Source: a virus (Duplodnaviria; Caudoviricetes). Taken from it: 64,000 nucleotides of DNA. Below are positions 10,081-35,121 of the stretch, one piece after another. The position numbers were made by a program, and so were the translations under genes. The DNA lies in the IMG/VR virus record IMGVR_UViG_2558309013_000001, positions 6,779-70,778 of that record, one strand, 5' to 3'. The first letter of the stretch is position 1; each line of letters opens with the position of its first letter. The notes under the pieces are model-generated. The model was not told the origin of the DNA, did no database searches, and saw only the letters and a program-made list of their open reading frames with translations.

Positions 10081-10172
10081 TTAAAATACAGGAACTATGA
10101 TATTGACTTTCGTATCTGGGATATGATATAATTTACTTGATATTCAAATCGGAATTCATAGGAGTTTAGATT

Positions 10173-10421
10173 ATGAAAAGAAGGAAAAGAGAACTCTTAC
10201 CCAAAACTGAACCGCTAAAGCATGATCCTATTGAAGATACAGAATACTTTAAATCTATTATTGAAGAAGTTGACAAAGAAGCTGAATCTTTAGTTGATCC
10301 TGAAATAAGGTTCGGAAGATTTTCATTCATTGAAAGAGAGAAAAAAAGAATATTAAAGGAAAAATATAATATAGATTGGAAAACAACAGAAGAAATGAAT
10401 CCTAATTGGGATTTCATATAG
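10173..10421 (+). CDS. Moron: hypothetical 82-aa protein with its own promoter
   Basis: AT-rich; TTGACT-18-TATAAT at 10103-10132; AGGAG RBS; preceded by AAATCGGAATTC. Confidence 0.7.
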   Translation: MKRRKRELLPKTEPLKHDPIEDTEYFKSIIEEVDKEAESLVDPEIRFGRFSFIEREKKRILKEKYNIDWKTTEEMNPNWDFI

Positions 10422-10472
10422 TGGTTGCAGTGTCACGCTGCAAATTCTTATCAGTAACTGAATAAAAATATA

Positions 10473-10497
10473 AGCAGTCTTCGTGACTGCTTTTTTT
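10473..10497 (+). terminator. Rho-independent terminator
   Basis: AGCAGTC-TTCGT-GACTGCT followed by T run. Confidence 0.75.
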
Positions 10498-10518
10498 AAT
10501 TCCTATGGAGGTTAGAAC

Positions 10519-10869
10519 ATGCCTCGAAAAGCTATGAAGCCCTGCCGACACTCCGGCTGCCCGAGACTTACTGAGGGGATCTACTGCGCAGAACATCTCC
10601 CCCTTCACCCTGACAGACCCTCTGCTTCAAAGCGAGGCTACGGCAGTAAATGGCAGCGATTAAGCAGGTCTTATCTCCGCAAGCACCCGCTCTGCGTCAA
10701 GTGCCTTGCAGAAGGTCGTTTCGTAACCGCTACCGTCGTCGACCATGTCATTCCCCACCGCGGCGACCACTCACTTATGTGGAGCGAATCCAACTGGCAG
10801 GCATTATGTAAGTCATGTCACGACAAGAAAACCGGAACTGAGGACAGCAGACCGGAATACACATACTAA
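10519..10869 (+). CDS. Terminase-associated HNH endonuclease
   Basis: PLCVKC, VVDHVIPH, NWQALCKSCHDKKT; directly upstream of terS. Confidence 0.9.
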   Translation: MPRKAMKPCRHSGCPRLTEGIYCAEHLPLHPDRPSASKRGYGSKWQRLSRSYLRKHPLCVKCLAEGRFVTATVVDHVIPHRGDHSLMWSESNWQALCKSCHDKKTGTEDSRPEYTY

Positions 10870-10970
10870 GCCCCGGGGGGTATCAAAATCTCTGCGAACT
10901 GCTCTCAGGAAGACCGGCGCCCCCTCTCACGCACAAAAACAGCATTTTCAAAGGGGGAATAACCCCGGCT
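10870..10970. other. Probable cos/packaging-initiation region
   Basis: GC-run-rich non-coding segment (CCCCGGGGGG...GGCGCCCCC...CCCCGG) between HNH and terS, the usual cos position in HNH-type cos phages. Confidence 0.45.
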
Positions 10971-11110
10971 CAGACAATAATCAAACCATGCCTGCAAATG
11001 GCTGAATACTGCAAATTTCTCCCGACAACACGTCGGGATTTTTTATGCTCTGCGGAGCTTTTTTCAAACGTTATTTGATTTCTTTGATTTTTTTCAAAGG
11101 AGGTGAACTC

Positions 11111-11665
11111 ATGGCAAAAGACGGTACAAAGCGCGGCGGAGCTAGACCTGGTGCAGGGCGCAAGCCTAAGGCTCTGAAGGAGAAATTAGACGCCGGCAAT
11201 CCCGGCGGTCGCAAGCTTACTGTCCTGGATATTCCCGAAACACTGGGAGCTGATATGGAAGGGGTCGATATGCCGCCTCCGGGAGAATACCTTTCCGCAG
11301 TTCAGCGCGACGGCGAGAAGCTCTGCGCCGCTGAAATATACAACCATACCGCCGCATGGCTTAAGAAGCTGGGCTGCGAAAAAATGGTAAATCCACAGCT
11401 TATCGAGCAATACGCCATGAGCGTTGCCCGATGGATACAGTGCGAGGAGGCTATCAGCAGGTATGGATTTCTCGGCAAGCATCCGACCTCAAATGCGCCT
11501 ATTCAAAGTCCATATGTCGCCATGTCACAGAATTACATGAAGCAGACCAACAATGCATGGTACCAGATTTTTCAGGTTGTCAAGGAGAACTGCTCAGTCG
11601 ATGCAACAGGTGCAAATCCTATGGACGACGCTATGGAGCGGCTTCTCCGCGCAGGTCGCAAATAG
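11111..11665 (+). CDS. terS: Terminase small subunit (P27 family)
   Basis: RGGARPGAGRK start, LIEQYAMSVARWIQCE, SPYV; GGAGGTG RBS. Confidence 0.85.
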   Translation: MAKDGTKRGGARPGAGRKPKALKEKLDAGNPGGRKLTVLDIPETLGADMEGVDMPPPGEYLSAVQRDGEKLCAAEIYNHTAAWLKKLGCEKMVNPQLIEQYAMSVARWIQCEEAISRYGFLGKHPTSNAPIQSPYVAMSQNYMKQTNNAWYQIFQVVKENCSVDATGANPMDDAMERLLRAGRK

Positions 11666-11677
11666 AAAGGAGTTCCT

Positions 11678-11791
11678 ATGAAGAAAGCTTCAAATCCCAG
11701 ACAGATTTACAAGCCCCAGCAGAATTACCGCAACATCACTGACACCCGTAAATGCCTGAAAAGAGTAATGAAACGGAGGAATACCCGATGA
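11678..11791 (+). CDS. Small basic hypothetical protein (37 aa)
   Basis: AAGGAG RBS; ATGA overlap with methylase. Confidence 0.4.
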   Translation: MKKASNPRQIYKPQQNYRNITDTRKCLKRVMKRRNTR

Positions 11792-13050
11792 AAACAACCA
11801 CTGAATTCCAGCTTGTCGCTACCGAGAAGCTCATACCCTACGTCAACAATGCCCGAACGCACTCCCCTGAGCAGATTACCAAGCTCCGCTCATCTCTGCG
11901 GGAGTTCGGCTTCATAAATCCAGTCATCATCGACAAGGATTACAACGTAATTGCAGGTCATGGACGTATCGCCGCCGCTAAAGATGAGGGCATTGCGGAG
12001 GTCCCCTGCGTCCTTGTGGACTACCTTACCGAGGCACAGAAAAAAGCCTACATACTGGCCGATAATCGCATGGCACTTGATGCAGGCTGGGACGAAGAAA
12101 TGCTCCGTATTGAGATTGAGTCCCTGCAGGCTGAGGCTTTCGACATAGGTCTCACCGGCTTTGACGACAAGGAGCTCGCCGACCTGTTCCGCACTGACGG
12201 AAGTGAAGCCCATGAGGACGATTTTGACCTTGAGGCTGAGCTTGAAAAGCCCTGCTGCTCCAAGCCCGGCGACATCTGGCATATTGGCAGGCACACTGTT
12301 ATCTGCGGAGACTCCACTCTCCCGGAGACATACACAGCTCTTCTCGGCGACACTAAGGTAAACCTGGTCTGCACGGATCCGCCCTACCTGGTAAACCTTG
12401 AAAGTAGCTCCGGCAGGATAAAAAATGACGACCTCGATGACGAGGCCGGCTATAAGTTCCTGAAATCCGCCTTTGAGCGACTTCACGACGCTATGGCAAA
12501 GGACGCAAGTATTTACGTTTTCTATGCAACTTCAAAAGCTCGGGTATTCCATGACGCATACGAGGACGCAGGCTTCAAGGTTGGCGCAGGACTGGTCTGG
12601 AAAAAGGACCGACTTGTTCTCACACGCACCGACTGGAAATACATACACGAGCCGATAATCTGGGGCTGGCGCAAGGACGGAAAGCATATATGGTACGGGG
12701 ACCAGAAACAGCGCACTGTCTTTGAATTCGACCGCATAAAGAACAGCAAAGACGACGGCTGCGGACACCCAAGCTCCAAACCTGTACCGCTTATTGCCTA
12801 TCTTATCTCCCAGTGCACCCAGTCAAACGGACTGGTGCTGGACTGCTTCCTCGGCTCTGCTTCAACGCTCATCGCCTGCGAGCAGCTTGACCGTATCTGC
12901 TACGGCGTAGAGCTGGAGCCTAAGTTCGTTGATGTCGCTGTGAAAAGGTACATAAAGCTCCACGAAGGCAGGTCTGATGATGTGTATCTTATTCGTGACG
13001 GTGAGCAGATTACATATGCAGAGATGATGAAGAATACCGAGGAAGTATAA
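11788..13050 (+). CDS. ParB-N fused DNA N4/N6 methyltransferase
   Basis: LIPYVNNARTH...IAGHGR ParB-like domain; TDPPY catalytic motif; HPSSKP; VLDCFLGS SAM motif. Confidence 0.9.
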   Translation: MKTTTEFQLVATEKLIPYVNNARTHSPEQITKLRSSLREFGFINPVIIDKDYNVIAGHGRIAAAKDEGIAEVPCVLVDYLTEAQKKAYILADNRMALDAGWDEEMLRIEIESLQAEAFDIGLTGFDDKELADLFRTDGSEAHEDDFDLEAELEKPCCSKPGDIWHIGRHTVICGDSTLPETYTALLGDTKVNLVCTDPPYLVNLESSSGRIKNDDLDDEAGYKFLKSAFERLHDAMAKDASIYVFYATSKARVFHDAYEDAGFKVGAGLVWKKDRLVLTRTDWKYIHEPIIWGWRKDGKHIWYGDQKQRTVFEFDRIKNSKDDGCGHPSSKPVPLIAYLISQCTQSNGLVLDCFLGSASTLIACEQLDRICYGVELEPKFVDVAVKRYIKLHEGRSDDVYLIRDGEQITYAEMMKNTEEV

Positions 13051-13055
13051 TATGA

Positions 13056-14105
13056 TCATTCTTTCAGTTTTACATATATCGGAATAATATCTAATTTAAA
13101 ATTTGGAGCTATTTTTGAAAAAGACTCTATTTTTGATTCAATTTTATTGCAAAGAGTTTCATTTATTTCAGGATACCTTGAAGGATTCTCAGATATTGTT
13201 ATTTCATAATTAAAGAAATGAAACATATCCACTTTAGCTATTATTCTATCATTTTTCGATTCTATGTTTATAGTAATATTATGGTCAGGTAAATTCATCC
13301 ATTGTTCCCATTCCTGATCATCCATTTTTTTATACAGAGGTTCACAAGTAGCATTAGTTGGTAAAATGTTATCGCCTTTTTTATCAAAGTTTTTCAAAAA
13401 TAATCTTATTGGTTCTGCTAAATCATCATCTAAATACTTCAAATCTGTTATTACACAAATATACTCATATGCCATTTTCAATGCCAAAGGATAACAGCAT
13501 TTTATCAAATAAGTAAGTTCCTCTTTACCATATGAGAGGAACAAAATCCTAGGTTTTTTTTCTAAAAATTGTTTTTTTTCAACAAAACAAGCCCCCTCAC
13601 CGCTATTATCCGAATGAGAATCTTTCTTTATATACAAAGCAGATACGGACACATGCTTGTATTTTTCAGACAGTTTGTCAATTGTTTTTTCAAAAAATTT
13701 TCTGAAGTTTTTTTCGTCACTTACTATAAGCTTTCCTTCGGCATAGTCATATACTCCCGGAATTGCGGTACATTTTTTGAAATATCCTTTTTTATCCATT
13801 TCCATAAGTACTTTAACATTCGTAACAATTCCTGGATTATCTTTGAACTCTAAAGGGTAAAAAGTTTCTGTTTTAGATTCTTTATATGGATTCGGAATTC
13901 CTTTCCTACCAGCTATATTTAACAAATATCTGATTCCAACTAATGTATCAGAAGCAAATACATCAACAGAGTCGCCAAAATTACTATTGCAATCTTCACA
14001 TACACATTTAAATTTTTTTTTACCGCCCAGTGACTTTAAGATAATATGTTCATCATTAAAAAAAGAATCATCTTTCATCTTCTTACAAAGAATACATATA
14101 CGCAC
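13056..14105 (-). CDS. Moron: HNH (HNH_5-like) endonuclease domain protein
   Basis: CILC, EHII..SLGG, VCEDCN; very AT-rich, antisense to phage operon. Confidence 0.75.
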   Translation of the reverse strand: MRICILCKKMKDDSFFNDEHIILKSLGGKKKFKCVCEDCNSNFGDSVDVFASDTLVGIRYLLNIAGRKGIPNPYKESKTETFYPLEFKDNPGIVTNVKVLMEMDKKGYFKKCTAIPGVYDYAEGKLIVSDEKNFRKFFEKTIDKLSEKYKHVSVSALYIKKDSHSDNSGEGACFVEKKQFLEKKPRILFLSYGKEELTYLIKCCYPLALKMAYEYICVITDLKYLDDDLAEPIRLFLKNFDKKGDNILPTNATCEPLYKKMDDQEWEQWMNLPDHNITINIESKNDRIIAKVDMFHFFNYEITISENPSRYPEINETLCNKIESKIESFSKIAPNFKLDIIPIYVKLKE

Positions 14106-14306
14106 GATAAAACCTCCTGTTTTTTCTGTTCATTTAAAATTATAAAATATAACAACCTATTTGTCAATATATAACTTGTAATATGCACAAATCAACGCCT
14201 CATGTTATTCACATATTCTCCGTATTACAGTATTGCTATCTGTGCAGTTCAGAGTTAATATGTGAATACGATAAAACACCGCATCAGCGGTACACAGGAG
14301 GTCACT

Positions 14307-14954
14307 ATGGAGATAAAATGCAACATTGAAAAGGACCAGCGAAAAGCACTGGCACAAAAAATCGGCGAGCTTGCAGACTTTGACATTCACTACTGCGGAG
14401 TTCCCACCTGTGCTTACGAAATCGGCTTCTTTACGCTGGACAAAGACGCAGTTCTTTCCTTCCCCGACAGAGAGAACACAGAAATCATAGAGAGGGTGCT
14501 GGAGGGGCTTCACGAAGCTGGCTACAACAGCGCTCCCGACGCACTTACAGTATCCATGCCCAAGAATATGCTCAATGACGAAGCCTTATTTAATCTGCGC
14601 CGAATCATAGCCAACAAGGAACAGCTCTTCAAGAAGGCATTTGACGCAGTTTCTCTTGAAATCACAGAGAGTGTGGAAACCATTGATTTCCCATGGTTCA
14701 CGGTTACGGGCGCAGAGGATACCGACGCATACACACGCTTTATTACAATGCTCTGCGAGTTTGCCAAAAACCAGAAACGTGTCAACAACAAGCCCGACAC
14801 CAGTGATAACGAGAAGTATTCCCTGCGATGTTTCCTGCTGAGGATAGGCATGATAGGCGATGAATACAAGTCCGCACGCCGAGTTCTGCTACACAGGTTG
14901 ACCGGAAGTTCGGCATTCCGCCATGGAGGTGCAAACAATGAGACTTCCAAGTAA
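14307..14954 (+). CDS. Phage 'virulence-related' family protein (function unknown)
   Basis: RKALAQKI, Y.GVPT.AYEIG, IDFPWF, NEKYSLRCFLLRIG. Confidence 0.7.
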   Translation: MEIKCNIEKDQRKALAQKIGELADFDIHYCGVPTCAYEIGFFTLDKDAVLSFPDRENTEIIERVLEGLHEAGYNSAPDALTVSMPKNMLNDEALFNLRRIIANKEQLFKKAFDAVSLEITESVETIDFPWFTVTGAEDTDAYTRFITMLCEFAKNQKRVNNKPDTSDNEKYSLRCFLLRIGMIGDEYKSARRVLLHRLTGSSAFRHGGANNETSK

Positions 14955-15174
14955 AACCGAGATAGAGCGCCTGCGGAAGATGTATCCACCTGGCACTCGC
15001 ATACGCCTTATATTCATGTCTGCGGAGCCGTATCCACTTCCGCCGGGCAGTATCGGCGAAGTTGAACTTGTCGATGACGCCGGCAACATAAACATGAAAT
15101 GGGAATGCGGCAGAGGGCTCTCACTTATCGCCGGCGTTGACAGCTTTGAAGTAATACCGGCAGCTCCGAAATAA
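14938..15174 (+). CDS. DUF4314 family protein
   Basis: YPPGTRIRL..M, G.V..VDDAG.I..KW..G..L.L..GVD. Confidence 0.75.
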   Translation: MRLPSKTEIERLRKMYPPGTRIRLIFMSAEPYPLPPGSIGEVELVDDAGNINMKWECGRGLSLIAGVDSFEVIPAAPK

Positions 15175-15361
15175 GAGAGCACCTATTCCATTGTATCCCA
15201 TATTACCATAGGATTGCAAGTATATCAAGTGTGTAAATACACCAATCATCAAAGTCGTGTATTTGCCTATATTCTGTAGTTTTAGCGGCTTGATATATCC
15301 TCCGTTCAGAGTTAATATGTACATGCCGAAAGGGAAAACACCCACACTGGAGGATACAAAA

Positions 15362-16306: not shown

Positions 16307-16611
16307 AAAAGGTCTGCTGCCCACACAGGAGTCTCCACAACGCCCTGTAAGGCCGCCAAGACATATCACTCGCAAACTTTACCGTCTTCAAACAGAGCAG
16401 CCTTAAAAGCCATTCTGAGCAATCCTGAGCGAAGCCATATATTACACAAGAAGCTGTGCAAAACTGCAACGGATATTCTGTACATTCAGACACTTGATAT
16501 ATCCCCTGTAAAGAGTTAATATTTGACTACCGGAACGGAAAAGCCTAACACCGCCGCCATTGTGCGGCTTAAGGTGGTGAAGGCAGTCGCCTTCGGAAAG
16601 GAATGAATGCA

Positions 16612-17076
16612 ATGAATAAATATTACCTTGCCTATGGCTCAAACCTCAATGTCCGCCAGATGCGGTACCGTTGTCCGGAAGCACGCATTGTCGGTATAAG
16701 CGTCATCAAAAACTACGAGCTTCTCTACAAGGGAAGCAAGACCGGCGCTTACCTTACCATTGAAAAGAAAAAAGGAAGCCTTGTTCCCATTGCGGTATGG
16801 GAAGTTTCCGACGCTGACGAATCAAGGCTTGACATCTACGAAGGCTTCCCCGACTTCTACTACAAGAAGAATGTTCGTCTGCCGGTAAAGCTCATTAGGA
16901 ACAGCAAGACCAAAGAGCTTGACGCATTTGTCTACATCATGCATGAGGAGCGCAAGCTGGGAGTTCCCACAACTTCATATATCCGAACCTGCGAGGAAGG
17001 CTACCGTAACTTCGGCTTTGATAATAAGTTCCTTGATGAAGCATATGAGATCAGCGCAAAGGAGGTACAGAAATGA
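16612..17076 (+). CDS. Gamma-glutamylcyclotransferase (AIG2-like)
   Basis: YLAYGSNL...QM..RCP, LDIYEGFP. Confidence 0.85.
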   Translation: MNKYYLAYGSNLNVRQMRYRCPEARIVGISVIKNYELLYKGSKTGAYLTIEKKKGSLVPIAVWEVSDADESRLDIYEGFPDFYYKKNVRLPVKLIRNSKTKELDAFVYIMHEERKLGVPTTSYIRTCEEGYRNFGFDNKFLDEAYEISAKEVQK

Positions 17077-17505: not shown

Positions 17506-17823
17506 GTCATTTCCCCCCTTTCTTGGCGCTATTATATCACCGTGATTGCAGTTTGGCAATAGTTTTGAGAAAAGTTCAGAGGATTATATAATAAATGTTT
17601 TAACTTAAATAATAATATAGATATTATTATATATTATATTATTATTTAAGAGAATTTTTCTATTTGTGCAATTTGCATATACAAAAAGGAATTATTACAC
17701 AACTGCCCCCTTTGTATTCGAGGCATTATTCTGTAGTTTTAGCGGCTTGATATATCACCAGTTCAGAGGTAATATGTGTGTACCGCAAGAACAGCGGAAT
17801 AAAGCCACAAAGGAGCAATTCAC

Positions 17824-19112: not shown

Positions 19113-20714
19113 TTGCGAAAGCTGAAAGATTATACACCGACGCAGTTCATGGCGGAGGATTCCCATTACGACAAAGCCGCCGCTGACTATGCGGTGCGGT
19201 TCATTGAGTGCCTTGCCCATACCAAAGGCACATGGGCGGGAAAGCCGTTCGAGCTGATCGACTGGCAGGAGCGCATCATCCGTGACCTGTTCGGTGTTAT
19301 CAAGCACAACGGCTACCGGCAGTTCAACACGGCATACATCGAAATTCCGAAGAAAAACGGAAAGTCTGAGCTTGCCGCTGCGGTCGCCCTGCTTTTGACC
19401 TGCGGCGACGGTGAGGAACGTGCCGAGGTCTACGGCTGCGCTGCCGACCGACAGCAGGCTGCGATCGTGTTCGATGTCGCCGCCGACATGGTGCGGATGT
19501 GTCCCGCCCTGAACAAGCGAGTGAAGATCCTGACCTCGCAGAAGCGCATCGTGTATGTGCCGACCAACTCCTTCTATCAGGTGCTTTCCGCTGAGGCGTA
19601 CAGCAAGCACGGCTTCAACATCCACGGAGTCGTATTCGATGAACTGCATACCCAGCCTAACCGGAAGCTCTTTGACGTTATGACAAAAGGCTCCGGCGAT
19701 GCCCGAATGCAGCCGCTGTATTTCTTAATCACCACAGCAGGCACGGACACGAACAGCATCTGCTACGAGCAGCACCAGAAGGCGCAGGATATTCTCGAAG
19801 GGCGCAAGATCGACAAGACCTTCTATCCGGTCATCTACGGCGCACCGGACGATGCCGATTGGACTTCTCCGGAGGTCTGGAAGAATTCAAACCCTTCCCT
19901 CGGTGAAACGATCGGCATGGACAAGGTGGAAGCCGCCTGCGAATCCGCCAAGCAGAACCCCGGCGAAGAAAACGCCTTCCGGCAGCTTCGTCTGAATCAA
20001 TGGGTTAAGCAGACCGTCCGATGGATGCCGATGCACAAGTGGGACGCCTGCAAGGTCGATTTCGACGAATCGCTGCTGGAAGGGCGTGTATGTTATGGCG
20101 GTCTCGACCTCTCGTCCACGACGGATATCACTGCTTTCGTGCTGGTGTTTCCGCCGACCGATGAGGACGACCATTATTATATTCTGCCGTACTTCTGGCT
20201 GCCGGAGGAATCGCTTGACCTGCGTGTAAGGCGTGACCATGTGCCATATGATCTCTGGCAGAGGCAGGGCTTCCTGATGACTACCGAAGGCAACGTTGTC
20301 CATTACGGCTTCATTGAGAACTTCATCGACGAACTGGGTACACGGTTCAATATCCGGGAGATCGCATTTGACCGCTGGGGTGCTGTGCAGATGTCGCAGA
20401 ACCTTGAAGAGCTGGGCTTCACACTGGTACAGTTCGGTCAGGGCTACCGTGATATGTCGCCGCCGACCAAAGAGCTGATGAAGCTGACGCTGGAGCAGAA
20501 GATTGCCCACAACGGGCATCCGGTTCTCCGCTGGAATATGGACAACATTTTCATCAAGTGTGATCCCGCAGGGAACATCAAGCCGGATAAGGAAAAATCC
20601 ACGGAAAAGATTGACGGAACGGTCGCCACGATTATGGCGCTCGACCGTGCGATCCGCTGTGGAAACGACACTGGCGACAGCATTTATGACGAGAGGGATT
20701 TGTTAGTGTTGTAG
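19113..20714 (+). CDS. terL: Terminase large subunit
   Basis: TTG start after GGAGGTG; PKKNGKS Walker A, VFDELH, ITTAG, GLDLS, KIDG. Confidence 0.95.
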   Translation: MRKLKDYTPTQFMAEDSHYDKAAADYAVRFIECLAHTKGTWAGKPFELIDWQERIIRDLFGVIKHNGYRQFNTAYIEIPKKNGKSELAAAVALLLTCGDGEERAEVYGCAADRQQAAIVFDVAADMVRMCPALNKRVKILTSQKRIVYVPTNSFYQVLSAEAYSKHGFNIHGVVFDELHTQPNRKLFDVMTKGSGDARMQPLYFLITTAGTDTNSICYEQHQKAQDILEGRKIDKTFYPVIYGAPDDADWTSPEVWKNSNPSLGETIGMDKVEAACESAKQNPGEENAFRQLRLNQWVKQTVRWMPMHKWDACKVDFDESLLEGRVCYGGLDLSSTTDITAFVLVFPPTDEDDHYYILPYFWLPEESLDLRVRRDHVPYDLWQRQGFLMTTEGNVVHYGFIENFIDELGTRFNIREIAFDRWGAVQMSQNLEELGFTLVQFGQGYRDMSPPTKELMKLTLEQKIAHNGHPVLRWNMDNIFIKCDPAGNIKPDKEKSTEKIDGTVATIMALDRAIRCGNDTGDSIYDERDLLVL

Positions 20715-20734
20715 TTGCTGAGGTAAATCTGAAG

Positions 20735-20920
20735 TTATTGAAACCTGTTATCGGTCACGGTTAAGCTTACATATTCATTATCCAGCTTATAATTTGATTT
20801 TGTATTTTTGAGAATGTTGTCTGACTCAATAGTTTTTTTCTCTTCATTATAGATCATAAGCCAATAGATAAAGTTAATTAAAAGCGCAACATAAACAACA
20901 CCGATAACGGGGTGTGATGA
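20735..20920 (-). pseudogene. Headless 61-codon 3' fragment of a membrane-protein gene
   Basis: Open frame SSHPVIGVVYVALLINFIYWLMIYNEEKK...RFQ* with no start; stop overlaps the cassette-end motif. Confidence 0.45.
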
Positions 20921-28588: not shown

Positions 28589-28610
28589 TTGCAAATGCAA
28601 GCATTTGCAA
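28589..28610. promoter_or_regulatory. Probable TA autoregulatory operator
   Basis: Perfect palindrome TTGCAAATGC-AA-GCATTTGCAA just upstream of minus-strand TGTGGTATAAT. Confidence 0.65.
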
Positions 28611-28667
28611 GCAAATTTTGTGACTTATTCAGAAAACAGAGTTTTAATCCCGCTGCAGACGATCTGT

Positions 28668-28772
28668 CTGCTCACAATCGGAGTCGTGAATGATGTGTTC
28701 ACCGAAAAGGAAAACGACTAATATGATGGCTGGTCGGAGGTCGCTGGACAGGCGGACTTTGATGCGTTCTGA
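28668..28772 (+). pseudogene. Duplicated, diverged 3' end of gpT with internal stop
   Basis: LLTIGVVNDVFTEKEND*YDGWSEVAGQADFDAF* versus gpT MLTIGLINDMFTERENDDYEGWHEVASQSDMDAF*. Confidence 0.8.
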
Positions 28773-28868
28773 TTGACTTTTGCTCCCTGATGTGCTATAA
28801 TTTTGGTATGGTGAATGTATGATTCTTTCACTGCAAAAATGGAATTTAGTGAAGAAGGAAATATAATA

Positions 28869-30443
28869 ATGAAAAAAACAGTCACACTTCTTTTGATCCT
28901 TGCAATGACCTTATCCATGACTGCCTGCGCAGGCAAGCAGGAAAGCACTTCACAAGCCGATAGCAGTCCCACCACGGCGCAGACAGAAAACAGTACTGCT
29001 GAACCAATACAAACACAGTCATTATCGCCCACAAAGCTCACGAATAAAATGACAGAGAAAGAACTTGACACAGTGACAAAACACGCTCTCACTCTGCTGG
29101 ACGAGCCGCCAAAACTCAGTTCAGACCCGAATGCCGAACACAAGGTCAGTATCGAGTTTCAGACGATAGACCTTGAAAACTGGCGCTCCTCGATCAATGA
29201 GAACCGCGATGAGATGACCGATGACGAATATAAAGAAGCAATGAAAAAGATACAAAAGGCTGAAGAAACTGGAGAGGGCCTGCGGTATCCGCTCCCACCA
29301 ATTGTAGACGGCTATATCGTTGCAAATTCTGTCCCTGAGGCAGATGTATTTGAGGACGGCGGTTTATATAAGTTTACGACTTCCACTATAGACGAAAACG
29401 GCGAGTGGCAGGTCAAAGACCTTTCATTTGCTTCGTTTGAGGAGTATCTGGACTATATCCGGGAGCAAGATGCCAAGCAGGGCTTCACCGAAGAGCAAAC
29501 AGACCTTGATATCTGTTTTATGCAGCTTGCTTACGATGCGCTTCGCTCAGGCGATTACGAGGAACTCCCCGAGGGCTCGGTCGACAGGAGCGATGAATCT
29601 CTTTATCTATGGAGCTATTTTCACAATTACAGAAGCGATTGGGAATACAATCGCGAAGAAGTAGAGGAGATCAAGGATTCAGTTGACGAGATTTACATTT
29701 ACGATGAAGAACTGCAAAGGTCATTCACTGTCCATGTGACGCTCCCACCTGATTATGACAATCATAAGACCTATCCTGTATTCTTCCTGACGGATGGTAT
29801 CTGGCGCTTCGGCAACTGTCCCGCACTGAGAAAATGTATAGAAAACAAAGAGGCTGCACCGGTGATCCTTGTCAGCCTGTATTACAGCTACGATGTCACC
29901 GACCCTGACGGGGAACTGCGCTATGAGGATCTTGTCATCAATCGCAGTGAGCTGCTGGATTTTATCACCGACAACCTGATGCCGTATCTCTGCGAGAATT
30001 ACAACATCGACTGCGGAAATTCCACGCTGTACGGTCATTCGGACGGAGGCGTATTCACACACTATGCACTGTTCAATTCAGATCAGTACGAGAATCAGCC
30101 CTTCGGACATTACATCATCGGCAGCCCTGCACTGTGGGGGCTAAAGCATTATAATGAATATGAAGGCATCAGCAATGACATATATATGAATGATTACGAC
30201 TATTATGTCAGAAACGAAACGCTGAGCAAAACCGTATTCCTGTGTGCAGGTTCGCAGGAAGATCCCGATTATGCCGACAATTATCGTGAGGGAGATGATA
30301 CAACGCTGGAAGGCGCTGCAAAGCTGAAAGAGCGTCTTGAGTCACATAATGCAGACCTGACATACAAGCTGTATGAATCCCATCATTATCAGTACATTCC
30401 CGAAATGCTGATAGAATATCTGAAAGAAACTTATCCGTGTTAA
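28869..30443 (+). CDS. Cassette cargo: lipoprotein with C-terminal alpha/beta-hydrolase (esterase)
   Basis: Lipobox MTAC; V.LPP.Y....YPV....DG; GHSDGG nucleophile elbow; promoter TTGACT-17-TATAAT at 28773-28801. Confidence 0.85.
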   Translation: MKKTVTLLLILAMTLSMTACAGKQESTSQADSSPTTAQTENSTAEPIQTQSLSPTKLTNKMTEKELDTVTKHALTLLDEPPKLSSDPNAEHKVSIEFQTIDLENWRSSINENRDEMTDDEYKEAMKKIQKAEETGEGLRYPLPPIVDGYIVANSVPEADVFEDGGLYKFTTSTIDENGEWQVKDLSFASFEEYLDYIREQDAKQGFTEEQTDLDICFMQLAYDALRSGDYEELPEGSVDRSDESLYLWSYFHNYRSDWEYNREEVEEIKDSVDEIYIYDEELQRSFTVHVTLPPDYDNHKTYPVFFLTDGIWRFGNCPALRKCIENKEAAPVILVSLYYSYDVTDPDGELRYEDLVINRSELLDFITDNLMPYLCENYNIDCGNSTLYGHSDGGVFTHYALFNSDQYENQPFGHYIIGSPALWGLKHYNEYEGISNDIYMNDYDYYVRNETLSKTVFLCAGSQEDPDYADNYREGDDTTLEGAAKLKERLESHNADLTYKLYESHHYQYIPEMLIEYLKETYPC

Positions 30444-30472
30444 TTGTAGATTTGAATTCTGATTTAGTTCAT

Positions 30473-30602
30473 TAACTGAATATACACTGAGCAGTCCTTC
30501 GGGGCTGCTTTTTTCATGCCCTCACGGAGGAGTAGGTGAAACTGCATGGCAAACAGAATCAAGGGCATCACCGTTGAGATTGGCGGCGATACTACCAAGC
30601 TG
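30473..30602 (+). repeat. Direct-repeat copy of terminator + RBS + first 19 codons of the tape measure gene (other copy 31049-31174)
   Basis: TAACTGAATATACACTGAGCAGTCCTTCGGGGCTGCTTTTTTCATGCCC identical in both copies; MANRIKGITVEIGGDTTKL from ATG 30546. Confidence 0.9.
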
Positions 30603-30650
30603 GTCGGAGGTCGCTAGACAGGCGGACTTCGATGCTTTCTGATTGACTTT
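30599..30650 (+). repeat. Third copy of the gpT 3' end plus promoter -35
   Basis: GCTGGTCGGAGGTCGCTAGACAGGCGGACTTCGATGCTTTCTGATTGACTTT near-identical to 28729-28780. Confidence 0.85.
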
Positions 30651-30732
30651 TTCTTCCTTCTGTGTTATAATTCTGTTGTGAAGGAAACATGAAGCTTCCT
30701 TCGCTAAATCGGAATTTGTGGAGGGGTAGGAT

Positions 30733-31026
30733 ATGAAAAAAACAAATGTTAAGCTGATACTTTCATTTATAGCTTTTTTAGTTGTGAATCTTTGGCTTGT
30801 GTTTAAGGGGGCTGCGAAAGGAAGCGCTGATTTTTTCATATCTCCGACAGTAGAGGAAACCATACTATTTATTCTTTTACAACTATCGGTCATTGTTGTC
30901 TACTTTATTCGTCCCCTTACTGTAAAAAAGTCAAAAATAATCTACTGGTGTGTTTCCGAAATGTTTGTTCTGGTTACTGTTTTCTTTTGGGGGATATTTA
31001 TCGTTGGACCTATATGGTTTCAATAA
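30733..31026 (+). CDS. Cassette cargo: small membrane protein (3 TM)
   Basis: Three hydrophobic stretches; promoter TTGACT-17-TATAAT at 30643-30671; flanked by 15-bp inverted repeats. Confidence 0.75.
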   Translation: MKKTNVKLILSFIAFLVVNLWLVFKGAAKGSADFFISPTVEETILFILLQLSVIVVYFIRPLTVKKSKIIYWCVSEMFVLVTVFFWGIFIVGPIWFQ

Positions 31027-31117
31027 TATAAATTCTGATTTAGCTTAGTAACTGAATATACACTGAGCAGTCCTTCGGGGCTGCTTTTTTCATGCCCCAA
31101 TGAGGAGGTGAAACCGT

Positions 31118-34100
31118 ATGGCAAACAGAATCAAGGGCATCACCGTTGAGATCGGCGGCGATACCACCAAGCTGTCGAAGGCGCTGGAAGGTGTCAATAA
31201 GAATATCAAAAACACGCAGACGCAGCTCAAAGATGTGGAAAAGCTGCTGAAGCTCGACCCGACCAATACGGAACTGCTGTCGCAGAAGCATAAGCTCCTC
31301 GCTGATGCGGTGAAGGCTACCAAAGAAAAGCTGGAAACCCTGAAAACAGCAGCAGAGCAAGCAAATCAGGCTCTCGCCAACGGCGACATCTCACAGGAGC
31401 AGTACGATGCCCTGCAGCGTGAGATCATCGAGACAGAACAGGAACTGCAGAACCTCCAGCGTGAAGCGGAGGCTTCCAGCACTGCGCTTGCAAAGCTCGG
31501 TCAGGCGGGAGAAATGCTTGAAAAAGCCGGTGACAAAATCGCCGATGTCGGAACGACACTGACCACTCATGTGACCGTTCCCGTCATGGCTGCCGGAACT
31601 GCTGCTGTGAAGACGGCTGCGGATTTCGATTCTGCTATGTCGAAGGTCGCTGCTGTATCCGGTGCGACTGGTGATGAACTTGACGCACTCCGGGATAAGG
31701 CTCGTGAGATGGGCGCAAAGACCAAGTTTTCCGCTTCCGAGGCTGCCGATGCCATGAACTATATGGCGATGGCGGGCTGGAAAACCGGAGATATGCTGGA
31801 GGGTATCGAGGGCATCATGAATCTCGCTGCTGCTTCCGGTGAGGACTTGGCGATAACCTCGGATATTGTAACAGACGCTCTGACCGCTTTCGGCTTATCT
31901 GCTGCCGACAGCGGTCATTTTGCTGATGTGCTGGCTGCGGCATCGTCCAACGCTAATACCAATGTGTCTATGATGGGCGAAACCTTCAAATACTGTGCGC
32001 CAGTTGCTGGTGCGTTGGGATTCTCCTGCGAGGATACAGCAGAGGCAATCGGCCTGATGGCAAACAGCGGTATAAAGGGTTCTCAGGCAGGTACGGCTCT
32101 CCGATCCATGATGAACGCTCTCGCAGGAGAAGTCAAGTTCTGCGGTGAGTCTTTCGGTGAAATCGAAATTGCAACTACCAATACCGACGGTTCGATGCGT
32201 GAATTGAATGACATCCTGGCGGACTGCCGTGTGGCTTTTGCACAGATGTCTGAATCGGAACAGGCATCGGCAGCGCAGGCTCTGGTCGGAAAGAATGCGA
32301 TGTCCGGTTTCCTTGCACTCATGAAAGCTGCACCTTCGGATATTCAGAAGCTGGAAGGTGCGATCAGCACCTGTTCCGATGAGATTGACGGCTATAACGG
32401 TGTCACGGAAAAGATGGCTGCAGTTATGCAGGATAACCTTGGAGGACAGCTTACCATACTGAAATCACAGCTACAGGAGCTTGCCATTTCCTTCGGTGAA
32501 ATCCTGATGCCTGCAATCCGTGCAATCGTCAGCAAGATTCAGGGGCTTATCGATAAATTCAACGGGCTGTCGCCTGCGACAAAGGAAACCATTGTTAAGG
32601 TCGCACTTATCGCAGCTGCACTGGGACCGCTTCTGATTGTCGTCGGTAAAACTATAGGTACCGTCGGTAAGCTGATGCAGTTTGTTTCAAATATCCCCAC
32701 TATTATAGCAGGTGCCAAAACAGCTTTTTCAACATTTGGTGCTGCCATAGGCGGTATCAGTGCTCCAGTAATATCTGTTGTAGCGGTGATAGGTACGTTA
32801 GTCGCCGCATTTACTCACCTATGGAAAACAAATGAAGAATTCAGAAACAACATAACTGCAATATGGACTCAGATAAAGGATACATTCCATAACTTCACAC
32901 AAGGTATAGTTGACAGACTTAATGCACTGGGATTTAACTTCAAAAACATATCCGAGGTAATTAAAGCAATCTGGGACGGACTATGTAAGTTCCTGAAACC
33001 TCTGTTTGAAGGCGTATTTAAAGAAATTGCCGATGTATTCAAATTCATAACAGACACCATTCTCAGCATACTTGATATATTCATCGGTATCTTTACCGGC
33101 GACTGGAGCAGAGTCTGGGAAGGTATAAAGGGGATATTTACAGGTATCTGGGACTTCATAGTATCTACCATAAAGAACGTTTTCAATACGCTCGACAAGA
33201 TATTCGGTGGAGCACTCAGTAAAATCAAGGATGTTGTGGTAAATGTCCTTACAGCCATAAAGAATTTCTTTGTAAATATCTGGACAGCTATCAGTAACAA
33301 GGTCAAGGAGAAAGTCGAGTTCATTAAGCTCGTTATAACTACTGTCTGGAATGCTATTCACTCTGTCATCAGTACAGTTCTCAATGCGATAAAGGATGTC
33401 ATAAGCAAGGTATGGAACTCCATTTACAGCGTTGTTTCTCCAATCCTTAACGCGATAAAGACTGTAGTTGAAACTGTGTTCAACGTAATTCATACCATTG
33501 TAAGCGCTGTTATGGATTGGATTCACCAACATATAACTGAAAAGCTGGAGATTATCAAGGCTGTTTTTACAATCGTATTTGATGCCATAAAGAACACCGT
33601 AGGAGCAGTATTTGACGCTATCCACTCAGTTATCAGCAGCGTCATGGACTGGATTCATGATAATATATCCGAGAAGCTCGAAATGATAAAAGCTGTATTT
33701 ACAATTGTATTCGAAACAATTAAAAATACGGTAGAAACGGTATGGAATGCGATATCTACAGTTATATCCACTGTAGTCGATGCGATCTCAAATGCCATAT
33801 CAAGTGCGTGGAACTTCATTGTAGATCATATAAAAAATACACTTGATACGATAAAGGCTGTTGTTACTACAGTCTGGAATGCTATTAGCGACTTTATATC
33901 CGGAATTGTAAATACAATCAAGTCAGTTATCTCGAATGTATGGAATGCAATAAAAGACACGGTCACAAACATCATGAATGCAATAAAAAATACTGTCTCC
34001 AATATATGGAACAGTATCAAATCGGCAATATCTTCAACTATTGGCGGTATCAAGGATACCATCGTTAACGGTTTCAACAAAGCTGTAGACTTTGTTAAGA

Positions 34101-34564
34101 ACCTTGGAAAAGAGGCTTGGCAGTGGGGCGCAGATATAATCAACGGTATTGTTGACGGTATCAAGAGCTGTATAGGCAAAGTTGGTGACGCAGTTAAGAG
34201 TGTTGCCGATAAGATAAAGTCCTTCCTGCATTTCTCAGTACCGGATGAAGGTCCTCTTACTGACTTTGAGAGCTGGATGCCGGACTTCATGAAGGGGCTG
34301 GCAAAGGGCATCAATAAGAGCAAGAAGTATGTCGAGGCGGCTGTATCCGGTGTGGCTGATGCCATGACGCTGACGATGCAGTCCGGGCTGAATGTCGATA
34401 TGGACGGCATCTCCGGTGCGATGATGAACGGCGGCAGCGGCGGTGTGGTCAATAACTACTACAACAACGACAACAGCCGCACAGTGAATCAGACAAACAA
34501 TAGTCCGAAATCGCTGTCACGGCTGGAGATTTATCGTATGACGCGCAATGCGCTGAATGTGTGA
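31118..34564 (+). CDS. Tail tape measure protein
   Basis: TP901-type core (MGAKTKFSASEAA.AM.YMAMAGW); 11-residue W/F-periodic repeats; FLHFSVPDEGPL. Confidence 0.95.
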   Translation: MANRIKGITVEIGGDTTKLSKALEGVNKNIKNTQTQLKDVEKLLKLDPTNTELLSQKHKLLADAVKATKEKLETLKTAAEQANQALANGDISQEQYDALQREIIETEQELQNLQREAEASSTALAKLGQAGEMLEKAGDKIADVGTTLTTHVTVPVMAAGTAAVKTAADFDSAMSKVAAVSGATGDELDALRDKAREMGAKTKFSASEAADAMNYMAMAGWKTGDMLEGIEGIMNLAAASGEDLAITSDIVTDALTAFGLSAADSGHFADVLAAASSNANTNVSMMGETFKYCAPVAGALGFSCEDTAEAIGLMANSGIKGSQAGTALRSMMNALAGEVKFCGESFGEIEIATTNTDGSMRELNDILADCRVAFAQMSESEQASAAQALVGKNAMSGFLALMKAAPSDIQKLEGAISTCSDEIDGYNGVTEKMAAVMQDNLGGQLTILKSQLQELAISFGEILMPAIRAIVSKIQGLIDKFNGLSPATKETIVKVALIAAALGPLLIVVGKTIGTVGKLMQFVSNIPTIIAGAKTAFSTFGAAIGGISAPVISVVAVIGTLVAAFTHLWKTNEEFRNNITAIWTQIKDTFHNFTQGIVDRLNALGFNFKNISEVIKAIWDGLCKFLKPLFEGVFKEIADVFKFITDTILSILDIFIGIFTGDWSRVWEGIKGIFTGIWDFIVSTIKNVFNTLDKIFGGALSKIKDVVVNVLTAIKNFFVNIWTAISNKVKEKVEFIKLVITTVWNAIHSVISTVLNAIKDVISKVWNSIYSVVSPILNAIKTVVETVFNVIHTIVSAVMDWIHQHITEKLEIIKAVFTIVFDAIKNTVGAVFDAIHSVISSVMDWIHDNISEKLEMIKAVFTIVFETIKNTVETVWNAISTVISTVVDAISNAISSAWNFIVDHIKNTLDTIKAVVTTVWNAISDFISGIVNTIKSVISNVWNAIKDTVTNIMNAIKNTVSNIWNSIKSAISSTIGGIKDTIVNGFNKAVDFVKNLGKEAWQWGADIINGIVDGIKSCIGKVGDAVKSVADKIKSFLHFSVPDEGPLTDFESWMPDFMKGLAKGINKSKKYVEAAVSGVADAMTLTMQSGLNVDMDGISGAMMNGGSGGVVNNYYNNDNSRTVNQTNNSPKSLSRLEIYRMTRNALNV

Positions 34565-34609
34565 TGGGGGATTTTCCAGCCCCATTACTGCGGTAAATCA
34601 GAATTTGTA

Positions 34610-35023
34610 TCACAGAACCATCAGCAATGTTCCGGCTCCAATCAGGATACACCCTATCACTGACTTAAAAGTAAATTCTTCATGCAGAAAAACAAACGCC
34701 AGTATCAGCGTAATGACAACGGACAACTTATCAATCGGGACGACTTTTGAAGCGTCTCCCATCTGCAAGGCCTTGTAATAGCAAAGCCATGAGGCACCAG
34801 TAGCAAGGCCGGACAGAATCAGGAAAACCCAACATTTCTGGCTAATGTCTTTTATTCCGGCTTGCTGATGAGTAATAAATACCATTCCCCATGCCATGAT
34901 AACAACAACCATCGTACGGATCGCAGTAGCCAGATTCGATCCGACACCTTCAATTCCTATCTTTGCCAATATTGATGTCAGTGCGGCAAAGATTGCCGAA
35001 CCAAGCGCTAATAAAAACCACAT
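34610..35023 (-). CDS. Cassette cargo: EamA/DMT family small transporter
   Basis: FAALTSILAKIG, ATAIRT, SWLCYYKALQ.G.ASKV.PIDKLSV; flanked by 14-bp inverted repeats. Confidence 0.9.
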   Translation of the reverse strand: MWFLLALGSAIFAALTSILAKIGIEGVGSNLATAIRTMVVVIMAWGMVFITHQQAGIKDISQKCWVFLILSGLATGASWLCYYKALQMGDASKVVPIDKLSVVITLILAFVFLHEEFTFKSVIGCILIGAGTLLMVL

Positions 35024-35121
35024 AGTGATACTCCTTCAAATTCCGATTTAGCGCAGAGAGCCCGCGCTCCGTTTTTTCTATTATACCACACTCAAACCTA
35101 AAAAGTAAAGGTGATGCAACC

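Follow-up and report, generated by a model that had tools for sequence, protein, structure and literature searches.

A phage moron is a promoter-gene-terminator unit inserted between phage genes. The attC sites of integron cassettes are imperfect palindromes, conserved in structure and variable in sequence, with one site per cassette. Among the known elements closest in kind to those described below are the prokaryotic MITEs and the MICs, of which MIC231 from the Bacillus cereus group is an example (PMC6199540, PMC6542083, PMC10969869). Others are the dif modules of Acinetobacter plasmids, in which inverted short recombination sites bound gene modules (PMC6449649, PMC13141974, PMC12907356), and the palindrome-targeting IS and MITEs, such as REP-targeting IS (PMC1525189).

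Here, we analyze a stretch of 64,000 nucleotides from a virus of the Caudoviricetes (the window). A preliminary description had proposed that unrelated genes in it, each bordered by a shared inverted repeat, are promoterless single-gene cassettes. That interpretation is supported, and the motif system is much larger than first seen. As in MICs and MITEs, short terminal inverted repeats surround passenger genes (69 ORF-filled pairs), no transposase is among the cargo families listed, non-coding relatives share the ends and movement must be in trans, TA is duplicated at the outer carrier, and several copies, coding and non-coding, occupy unrelated places. Unlike those elements as described, however, the Ruminococcus repeats are just 12-14 bp long and enclose more than 50 unrelated cargos, placement between promoter and terminator is strict, one fixed end base tracks gene direction, and neither a parent IS with the same ends (G000; 12 IS630-type loci) nor an unoccupied target was found.

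The units also recall integron cassettes: they are mostly promoterless single ORFs, tightly packed, with a site that overlaps the stop codon; they carry GNATs, small detoxifying enzymes and unknowns; and they occur in short arrays, one cassette appearing in different contexts. In contrast to integrons, the host is a Firmicute, genome G000 has no IntI above the cut-off (the best match to integron integrase TIGR02249 scores 48 bits against 265), and each cassette is served by the promoter and terminator of its own carrier rather than by one common Pc. Where attC varies in sequence, a conserved 14-bp sequence here stands inverted on both sides of the ORF. Like dif modules, the cassettes are discrete units shuffled among replicons, and they may likewise depend on site-specific recombination by an enzyme encoded elsewhere, as is thought for dif modules. 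The pdif site as described, however, is a 28-bp XerC/XerD site with two conserved arms, whereas the present site has 14 bp plus an outer stretch of 5-6 bp and an unconserved cargo side. The carrier MITE discussed below resembles palindrome-targeting IS and MITEs in lying in hairpin loops, with elements nested in each other's palindromes, but, unlike what is described for REP-targeting IS, it targets intrinsic terminators at their AT-rich loop, and along with the insert come a promoter, a terminator and a cassette site. By position (tail chaperone/TMP, TMP/Dit, early region) and anatomy the window units are morons; unlike in plain morons, the inner gene is a separately exchangeable cassette, common to chromosomal carriers.

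Cassettes and cores

The features of the window are these:

10103-10132 (+): outside promoter of the 82-aa cassette, TTGACT-18-TATAAT with TG extension, 11/12
10145-10158 (+): 5' core CAAATCGGAATTCA of the 82-aa cassette, from the motif search
10173-10421 (+): cargo, 82-aa ORF, no Pfam or PHROG match
10442-10500 (+): degenerate 3' core AAATTCTTATCA, then GTAACTGAATA with a terminator at 10472-10492; homology to repeat family D5
20713-20736 (+): weak family member GTTGCTGAGGTAAATCTGAAGTTA, 3' of the minus-strand terL-portal moron, 5 mismatches to the 24-mer consensus
28729-28772 (+): tail gene lying upstream, its 3' end (last letters ...TTCTGA), D2, second copy at 30599-30642
28773-28801 (+): outside promoter of the esterase cassette, 11/12
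28835-28849 (+): degenerate 5' core AAAAATGGAATTTAG of the esterase cassette, from the sequence at the locus
28869-30443 (+): cargo, lipoprotein with esterase domain (PF00756, 1.2e-14)
30453-30467 (+): 3' core TGAATTCTGATTTAG of the esterase cassette, from the motif search
30468-30516 (+): 3' module TTCATTAACTGAATATACAC of the esterase cassette with terminator (30489-30510), D5, 93%
30530-30602 (+): second copy of the tape measure gene's ribosome-binding site and first 19 codons, D4, 93%
30643-30671 (+): outside promoter of the 3-TM cassette, 11/12
30705-30718 (+): 5' core TAAATCGGAATTTG of the 3-TM cassette, from the motif search
30733-31026 (+): cargo, 97-aa membrane protein (3-TM), no Pfam match
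31029-31042 (+): 3' core TAAATTCTGATTTA of the 3-TM cassette, from the motif search
31043-31092 (+): 3' module GCTTAGTAACTGAATATACAC of the 3-TM cassette with terminator (31065-31086), from repeat comparison
31118-34564 (+): tape measure protein gene, slot neighbor outside any cassette
34594-34607 (-): EamA cassette, 3' core, CAAATTCTGATTTA on the sense strand, from the motif search
34610-35023 (-): cargo, EamA-family half-transporter, 137 aa (PF00892, 2.5e-23)
35037-35050 (-): EamA cassette, 5' core, TAAATCGGAATTTG on the sense strand, from the motif search
35051-35109 (-): TMP-Dit slot, leader hairpin with the outside promoter at 35109-35080

All repeat strings quoted in the preliminary description are present where it placed them. 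The pairs around the EamA gene (34594-34607 and 35037-35050) and the 3-TM gene (30703-30717 and 31030-31044) are clean. The 5' copy of the esterase cassette (28836-28847) and the 3' copy of the 82-aa cassette (10442-10453) are degenerate, but their flanks are homologous to clean ones (D2 and D5). The pair assigned to the terL-portal moron is weak: just the copy at 20724-20736 resembles the family, and it lies ~190 nt from the ORF end. The esterase lipoprotein likely starts at 28869, after the ribosome-binding site GAAGAAGGA, the mechanical ORF starting at 28815. The copy of the tape measure gene start at 30530-30602 marks a tandem duplication of the slot, and in a relative without these morons the joint is 28773->31104.

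The 14-bp core reads TAAATCGGAATTTA on the 5' side and TAAATTCTGATTTA on the 3' side, the two inverted relative to each other, and a further inverted repeat of 5-6 bp is often present outside it. Each core contains an internal palindrome, TAAAT-N4-ATTTA, and nearly all cores have TA at both outer ends, a few outer ends being TG or TT instead. The left and right ends differ constantly at core position 7, which is G on the left and A on the right. This short, one-sided site, 14 bp without conservation on the cargo side, is unlike known tyrosine or serine recombinase sites.

Core pairs enclose single ORFs tightly, with a median of 14 nt between 5' core and start codon and of 2 nt between stop codon and 3' core. 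The ORF-filled pairs, 69 in number, come from G000 and from fetched loci, and 20 of them use the TAA in the 3' core as stop codon. The earlier proposal that repeat polarity follows the gene held in this larger set: 64 of the 69 pairs have an upstream CGG form and one has it downstream, most loci having been baited with the CGG form, which guarantees a CGG copy but not its side of the ORF. The full CGG-up/CAG-down combination occurs in 47 pairs, and the reverse in one.

Core pair and ORF are flanked by an outside promoter on one side and an outside terminator on the other. A promoter outside the upstream repeat, also part of the preliminary description, is borne out at four cassettes (82-aa, esterase, 3-TM and EamA), where the best promoter-like sites of the region (10103-10132, 28773-28801, 30643-30671 and 35109-35080), each 10-11/12 with a TG extension, lie just outside the repeat. 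Both cores of the window cassettes are inside the predicted transcript; in some other carriers (C11:3001, C5:220934) the -10 box abuts the repeat, so that part of the repeat would escape transcription. The motif exceeds background. With at most one mismatch, AAATCNGAATTT matches 12 times in the window versus a shuffle mean of 2.81 (sd 1.61, largest 7), and 0 of 100 window shuffles reach 12. Across the whole genome, the 24-mer consensus (at most six mismatches) matches 28 times versus 3 in a reversed-sequence control, and convergent core pairs no more than 2.5 kb apart number 19 versus 1.

Distribution, carriers and reassortment

Of 161 genomes assigned to the genus Ruminococcus (R. flavefaciens group), 97 contain the exact 14-mer, with four control matches among those listed; a 16-mer occurs in 10 of 24 genomes of the same genus and in none of 16 other genera of the order. 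Carriers of the motif include rumen or gut MAGs and 41 viral contigs. The cassette system is not phage-specific, however, for the majority of copies lie on the chromosome, either in MITE-like carriers or as short arrays. More than 50 unrelated cargos were seen, among them GNATs, esterases, hexapeptide transferases, CrcB, EamA, nitroreductase, NUDIX and DUFs, a spectrum of the integron-cassette kind; the 25 Pfam families listed for 52 cargos include no transposase.

Four kinds of carrier were seen: a MITE-like 'expression shuttle', which is the commonest, short tandem arrays inside integrated elements, prophage moron slots, and the 5' UTRs of ordinary genes. The shuttle has its own 20-bp outer inverted repeats and sits, with a TA duplication, in the loop of a host terminator hairpin. 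At one orthologous site, G058 has the intact hairpin GAGCTGACC-ATAAA-GGTCAGCTC, and G000 holds at that position a 790-bp element with TA on both sides; on this sequence comparison the outer carrier MITE is shown to duplicate TA on insertion. Locus-specific inverted flanks surround 16 of 16 such carrier elements.

Small accessory genes that this rumen bacterium and its prophage carry between the 14-base inverted repeats are mobile plug-in cassettes, because the same gene is found between the same repeats in quite different places. The EamA cassette is 100% identical over 457 bp between the window and G058, another species; the identity spans query positions 301-757 (window 35050-34594), core to core only, and the flanks are 52 and 50% alike. 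In G058 this copy belongs to a chromosomal three-cassette array. In metagenome data a match to the EamA region has a loose end at 34595, in the 3' core. A rumen metagenome contig matches 30705-31050 (the 3-TM cassette) with 0 differences in unlike flanks. The EamA and 3-TM cases bear out the expectation that the same cargo would recur elsewhere with the same borders. A kinase-like cargo is shared by G009 and G000 C11 in unlike flanks, and the C5 cargo recurs (97%, core to core) behind another promoter in G009:C20, in the 5' UTR of an ordinary gene. The cargo of G000 C11 cassette 2 is found in G024 within C5-type flanks. In all, at least five cases of one coding cargo in unlike flanks were seen.

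The converse also occurs. G024:C5 and G000 C5 have like flanks and different cargo. Among 61 cassettes, a single 5' flank family is combined with 30 cargo families and a single 3' flank family with 24, the dominant flanks being conserved over ~120 and ~95 nt. Cassettes and carriers reassort with breakpoints on the cores: homology breaks at the motif both where cargo is kept and flanks change and where flanks are kept and cargo changes, as expected of promoterless single-gene cassettes moved between sites. At the TMP-Dit slot, four related prophages have four different cargos between homologous core-bearing flanks, in line with the predicted cargo swaps at the motif; but in ~22 of 27 insert-bearing TMP-Dit slots of related prophages the moron lacks the motif, and the cores are therefore not required for a moron at that slot.

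The same cores also bound non-coding MITE-like elements, at 26 places in G059, 18 in G097 and 0-4 in most genomes. Near-identical copies lie at no fewer than 20 different loci in G059, with unrelated flanks at several, and look like transposition into new sites rather than exchange. One orthologous 5' UTR has four different non-coding fillings in four species with identical junctions, and empty species carry TA exactly at the position of the right junction.

How the cassettes might move

How could genes with so short a site in common be placed so precisely? The explanation we favor, at a probability of about 0.45, is that the motif is the end sequence of genus-wide non-autonomous cassettes, MIC- or integron-like, that are exchanged between already existing core pairs. 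A cassette consists of a 14-bp core, a ribosome-binding site, one ORF and an inverted core, without promoter or terminator, both of which the surrounding carrier supplies. A trans-acting enzyme would recognize the cores and swap the content of one left-right pair for that of another by crossing left core with left core and right core with right core, in the manner of recombinase-mediated cassette exchange. Owing to the G/A difference at position 7, a cassette would not invert on itself and would keep a set orientation to its promoter. The non-coding elements that share these cores behave like MITEs and have multiplied in some genomes. That no unoccupied core target was found, a search of 161 genomes giving 2 weak matches versus 5 in the control, supports exchange over insertion into naive sites. 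Against this explanation weigh the short, one-sided site, the near-identical non-coding copies in G059 and the motif-free morons at the TMP-Dit slot, and the comparison with assembled contigs showed no excised or circular form.

The preliminary description had such cassettes captured at phage expression slots by a trans-acting enzyme. The slots are confirmed, but the cassettes are mostly chromosomal and the enzyme was not found. Nor did the suggested co-occurring recombinase appear: neither a recombinase nor a transposase was linked to the cores, and although two arrays have ordinary phage-type integrases nearby, single cassettes do not. A more specific version, which we offer tentatively, is that R. 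flavefaciens-group Ruminococcus has its own integron-like cassette-exchange system, in which a recombinase would swap single promoterless genes between any two left/right 14-bp site pairs, the one-base difference would make the pair heterospecific and fix direction, and the sites would be spread on self-inserting shuttles, integrated elements and prophage moron slots. If so, phage morons, chromosomal accessory genes and element cargo would share one pool of more than 50 gene cassettes.

A possible but doubtful alternative is plain cut-and-paste or copy-and-paste transposition of an element AATCGGAATTTA...TAAATTCTGATT with 12-bp terminal inverted repeats, the flanking TA being a target duplication as in IS630/Tc1-mariner elements and MITEs. 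A transposase encoded elsewhere, or lost from most genomes, would move cassettes and non-coding copies, and selection would retain only insertions behind a promoter and in the right direction. The TA that borders nearly all cores on both outer sides fits, and may be a target duplication that the preliminary description overlooked; some outer ends, however, are TG or TT. The multiplied elements in G059 and G097 look as after a transposition burst, the carrier MITE provably duplicates TA, the G009:C20 cassette lies in an ordinary gene's 5' UTR, and the empty species have TA at the right junction of the orthologous UTR. On the other hand, no unoccupied target of the common carriers was found, and none of the core-bounded elements yielded a clean pair of empty and filled sites. 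An IS630-type DDE_3 transposase is absent from G000 and present in 28 of 161 genomes, but those rich in the motif are not among them, and neither the cores nor the outer repeats occur at 12 fetched IS630-type loci of the genus. If insertion were random, that alone would not account for 64 of 69 cassettes lying with a -10 box immediately on one side and a terminator on the other.

It is unlikely that no dedicated enzyme is involved, the cores serving expression by pairing the 5' and 3' UTR copies in the mRNA, which would protect its 5' end or make an RNase III site, and the cores with their 80-120-nt promoter/terminator modules being substrates on which ordinary or phage-encoded homologous recombination shuffles cargo. 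Such an arrangement would resemble the promoter-stem-loop cassettes of T4-type phages. Both cores do lie within the predicted transcript, and in 54 of 62 cassettes position 7 gives a G:U pair in the sense strand, where the opposite strand would have an A:C mismatch. Of the compensatory or strand-specific changes that would keep pairing in a structured RNA, only this one at position 7 was seen. Elsewhere there is no sense-strand wobble excess (G:T 14 versus A:C 19 in the core, 53 versus 78 in the outer extension), the nearly invariant core leaves no covariation to count, no Rfam family matches, and the repeat would be partly untranscribed in the carriers where the -10 box abuts it. The conserved flanks of ~120 and ~95 nt would suffice for RecA-type exchange within one flank family, but transfers across families (EamA, the C11 cassette 2 cargo) share just the 14-bp core, with flanks 50-52% alike, and a shared stretch of that length would not allow homologous exchange to work efficiently at the two ends. 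The first entry of each cargo between cores would also be left unexplained.

Finally, although the half-sites TAAAT and ATTTA four bases apart, and a 5' copy in the classic repressor position between -10 box and ribosome-binding site, recall the operator of a DNA-binding regulator with incidental mobility, this is very improbable, since a copy after the stop codon makes no operator sense, no regulator gene was found to travel with the cassettes, the motif coincides with homology breakpoints, and non-coding repeats are bounded by the same cores.

Borders and contents of the cassettes

The window carries single-gene cassettes, each consisting of a 14-bp core, a ribosome-binding site, one open reading frame (ORF) and the core in inverted form, placed within flanks (the carrier) that supply promoter and terminator. 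The relevant features are:

10145-10500, cassette of the 82-aa ORF with the terminator that follows it
28835-30467, cassette of the esterase lipoprotein
30705-31042, cassette of the 3-TM gene
31118-34564, + strand, tape measure gene (TMP)
34594-35050, - strand, cassette of the EamA gene, in the moron site between TMP and Dit (the TMP-Dit slot)

Every border string quoted in the preliminary description is present in the window where it was placed. With up to one mismatch, AAATCNGAATTT occurs 12 times, compared to a mean of 2.81 and a maximum of 7 in 100 dinucleotide-preserving shuffles, none of which reaches 12; four copies of the motif are exact, and these form both borders of the 3-TM gene and of the EamA gene. 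Similar borders had been assigned to the esterase and 82-aa genes, but the 5' copy of the former and the 3' copy of the latter are degenerate. Their flanks are nonetheless homologous to those of the clean copies, as seen in an alignment and in two direct-repeat families, D2 (28729-28847 and 30599-30717, 78% alike) and D5 (30450-30521 and 31026-31097, 93% alike). The moron between terL and portal, also proposed to be motif-bounded, is a weak example. As had been suggested, promoters lie outside the cassettes: of the promoter-like sites around these genes, the best four sit just beyond the upstream repeats, and terminators are located just beyond the downstream repeats. The full core is 14 bp, TAAATCGGAATTTA on the 5' side (the CGG form) and TAAATTCTGATTTA on the 3' side (the CAG form; sense strand), and there are often 5-6 bp more of inverted repeat (TTACT / AGTAA) on the outside, three unpaired bases away from the core.

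Cassettes are not confined to the prophage. In the whole genome that carries it (G000), a 24-mer consensus with up to 6 mismatches gave 28 matches versus 3 in a reversed-sequence control, and convergent core pairs no more than 2.5 kb apart numbered 19 versus 1 in the control. Cassettes on other G000 contigs are:

C11:1219-3448, array of three cassettes, each with a promoter (TTGACT-N17-TATAAT) and a terminator of its own
C11:20764-21245, GNAT cassette
C13, two cassettes
C5, one cassette

G000 and the loci fetched from other genomes together hold 146 convergent core pairs, 69 of them filled by a single ORF of at least 60 aa that spans at least 80% of the interval between the cores. The proposal that polarity follows the gene is borne out in these 69 pairs, with the CGG form upstream of the ORF in 64, the combination of CGG upstream and CAG downstream in 47, and the reverse combination in 1. 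The median distance is 14 nt from the 5' core end to the start codon and 2 nt from the stop codon to the 3' core, and the core's own TAA serves as the stop codon in 20 of the 69. At core position 7, the two ends pair as G:T in 54 of 62 cases, as Watson-Crick in 7 and as A:C in 1. A Pfam scan of 52 cargo proteins uncovered five GNATs, esterases, alpha/beta hydrolases, hexapeptide transferases, CrcB, an MBL-fold protein, EamA, isochorismatase, FMN reductase, nitroreductase, GyrI-like, NUDIX and DNA-alkylation repair proteins and several DUFs; the 25 Pfam families listed for these 52 proteins include no transposase or recombinase.

Of 161 genomes of the genus, 97 contain the exact 14-mer; the matches listed for a backwards control number 4. 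A 16-mer was found in 10 of 24 same-genus genomes and 41 viral contigs, and in 0 of 16 other genera of the order. A search for a 20-base form, with each species represented by one genome, returned 70 stretches, nearly all labelled Ruminococcus (including R. flavefaciens) or rumen/gut Oscillospiraceae and Clostridia MAGs, and four labelled otherwise. Exact cores are often found 4-320 nt from the end of a contig, as at 186-253 nt in five contigs of one genome (G097); these repeats therefore break short-read assemblies, and copy numbers are underestimates.

Reassortment of cargo and surroundings

What lies between the cores reassorts with its surroundings. Recurrence of the same cargo elsewhere with the same borders had been proposed as a check, and EamA does recur in this way. 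When its region plus 300-bp flanks on each side was compared to the genus, a match of 100% identity was found in a second genome (G058:C7:249170-249626) that covers only query positions 301-757, with edges at window 35050 down to 34594, that is, core to core. The G058 copy occupies the middle position of a three-cassette array with promoter-terminator spacers of the C11 type, and the contexts beyond the cores are 52% and 50% alike. A rumen metagenome contig agrees with the window from 34595 onward, the preceding sequence being unlike, and a 505-nt rumen metagenome contig contains the 3-TM cassette (30705-31050) with zero differences and ends unlike the window. Further cargos behave in the same way. 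A kinase-like cargo from C11 recurs in G009 with 91% identity and flanks 56% and 69% alike, and two other loci (L111 and L127) share a cargo at 92% with flanks 62% and 61% alike. The C5 cargo is found in G009:C20, 97% identical from core to core, between another promoter and an ordinary gene's ribosome-binding site, and the cargo of the second C11 cassette occurs within C5-type flanks in G024. The EamA cassette seems to be widespread in many contexts. Summed over contigs, the depth of its bins (34594-35050) is higher than that of most TMP bins (32586-34174) by a factor of several to about 100 in three rumen metagenomes and one metatranscriptome, contig depths being a rough guide only.

The converse arrangement, with different cargos in the same flanks, is seen at the TMP-Dit junction. 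In 35 related prophages, the two genes are 3-4 nt apart in 7 cases, one case is ambiguous, and 27 have a moron on the reverse strand, with a conserved leftward promoter adjoining Dit. Core pairs occur in about five of the 27 (four or five loci and the window). The slots of G000, L073, L078 and L090 have homologous flanks, including the cores, and different cargos, and they break at the inner core edge, cargo-swap breakpoints having been expected at the motif. Among 61 cassettes taken with 80-nt flanks, one 5' flank family joins 30 cargo families and one 3' family joins 24; four cargo families have at least two 5' families, and three 5' families have at least two 3' families.

Metagenome relatives without morons have the TMP stop joined straight to the Dit start, and the stop of the upstream tail gene joined to the TMP ribosome-binding site (28773 to 31104). 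The second joint shows that GCTGGTCGGAGG...TTCTGA belongs to the upstream tail gene, of which it forms the 3' end, and rules it out as a TMP gene remnant. The slot between tail chaperone and TMP is duplicated in tandem (window 30530-30644 and 31102-31174), and for this reason it holds two morons; in the duplicated stretch, the final ~45 nt of the upstream gene are fused to the ribosome-binding site and opening 19 codons of TMP.

Carriers and non-coding relatives

The dominant cassette flanks, about 120 nt upstream and 95 nt downstream, are bounded by a second, outer inverted repeat, G.TACTCATAAAGAAGTTT, which also ends a 240-300-bp MITE (roughly 30 pairs in G000). Every one of the 16 cassette carriers that have both outer repeats is framed by inverted flanks that are specific to its locus and include an A-run and a T-run; in other words, it sits inside a terminator hairpin. 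At one of these hairpins, the orthologous site in G058 is empty (...AAAAAAAGAGCTGACC-ATAAA-GGTCAGCTCTTGATTTTTT...), and the loop in G000 contains a 790-bp element with TA on either side. This comparison settles the nature of the carrier, which is therefore a MITE that targets the loops of terminators, duplicates TA there and supplies promoter, cassette site and terminator; the outer carrier transposes with TA duplication. Arrays and prophage slots provide other carriers. A phage-type integrase adjoins the G000 C11 array and is 3.3 kb away from the G058 array. The ~30 MITE copies are spread over G000 contigs C1, C2, C3, C4, C5, C6, C7, C9, C13, C14, C15, C21 and C27, each inside a locus-specific hairpin with A-run and T-run, i.e. 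in a terminator loop; their ends are TA plus ACCATGATACTCATATAGAAGTTTTAT, and C2:222414-222666 is one example.

Cores also enclose non-coding DNA. They terminate elements of 160-190 bp, composed of palindromic modules and REP-like GTAG hairpins, in two genomes, G059 with 26 exact cores and G097 with 18. G000 also has non-coding fillings, plus a minimal form in which the cores are 9 nt apart. The loops of the perfect terminal palindromes of otherwise near-identical copies from two genomes (L011-L050) come as complementary pairs, GAA/TTC, GCA/TGC and TTT/AAA. This flip-flop pattern shows that the terminal palindromes invert. One orthologous 5' UTR has four different fillings in four species with identical junctions, and no element in at least eight other species; a right-core remnant is kept in two. 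In L249, six tandem GATTACT copies occupy that UTR. No clean empty site for a non-coding element was found at two orthologous loci tried: at the first, element-free species exist, but their UTR has diverged so far that no duplication can be read, and at the second every close relative carries the element or breaks there. In G000, REP-like doublets (GTAG then a G+C-rich hairpin, in inverted pairs) lie inside an A/T core variant, TAAATCA[AT]AATTT, some of them in 5' UTRs of ordinary genes:

C3:317850-317984, REP-like doublet
C27:7455-7589, REP-like doublet
C3:34449-34798, REP-like doublet
C21:2703-2967, REP-like doublet

Candidate mechanisms and related systems

How might content move between cores? 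We tentatively favor, with a probability of about 0.45, a trans-acting enzyme that would act at the cores and exchange the content of core pairs already present. Exchange between existing pairs is suggested because unoccupied targets were not found, placement and direction are strict, and content is replaced at a fixed 5' UTR site. The fixed difference at position 7 would block recombination of a left with a right core, so that direction would be preserved.

Plain transposition is a somewhat unlikely alternative, even though it would account for the TA at both outer core ends, the MITE-like bursts at unrelated sites in some genomes and a cassette within an ordinary 5' UTR. If core-bounded elements had gone into a TA within palindromes that already existed, empty forms would be expected, but the predicted palindromes gave 17 weak matches versus 29 in the control (G000 and loci), 2 versus 5 (161 genomes) and a single match, to an unrelated palindrome (5 genomes), and this model was rejected. 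Recombination without a dedicated enzyme, driven by a role of the cores in expression, is less probable still. Both cores are within the transcript and position 7 is a G:U on the sense strand; however, away from position 7 there is no strand bias (14 G:T versus 19 A:C) and no covariation, and the 14 bp are all that cross-family transfers have in common. An RNA-level stem was ruled out as the leading explanation by these pair statistics and by the lack of an Rfam match. A core that functions as an operator is highly improbable.

With regard to the enzyme acting at the cores, neither candidate tested is supported: IS630-type (DDE_3) transposases are absent from G000 and present in 28 of 161 genomes, with unlike ends in the 12 loci read, and no integron integrase in G000 scored above the cut-off.

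Mobile insertion cassettes (MICs) and MITEs are nearest by anatomy, with no MIC-defining parent IS found for the Ruminococcus cassettes, and integron cassettes and Acinetobacter plasmid dif modules are nearest by logic and cargo. The integron hallmarks of IntI, attC and a common promoter are absent. No earlier description of such repeats or cassettes in Ruminococcus or R. flavefaciens was found in the literature searched, supplements aside.

Rare illegitimate recombination is the usual explanation for the entry of morons into phage genomes and for the movement of small accessory genes among phage, integrated elements and chromosome. In the present case the exchanged unit has a defined 14-bp border, which ties together phage morons, chromosomal accessory genes and element cargo; an identical cassette (100%) occupies a prophage tail-gene slot and another species' chromosomal array, and dozens of unrelated integron-cassette-like genes share one ready-made promoter-terminator carrier. 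Since the sites are known, direction is predicted to depend on one base, and genomes with non-coding bursts are available, the process is testable; those genomes also point to where the enzyme may be found. The system would also offer a natural plug-in expression site for a rumen fibre degrader that is hard to engineer. If the enzyme is an ordinary transposase, the cassettes would constitute a rich new MIC/MITE family, still useful for annotating these genomes, whose assemblies are broken by the repeats.

Finally, the early region of the prophage contains a separate family of direct repeats (D1, D6), which include GTTCAGAGTTAATATGT, are 42-79 nt long and 72-74% alike, and recur every ~1.2 kb (window 14222-14263, 15269-15347, 16473-16551 and 17726-17804).
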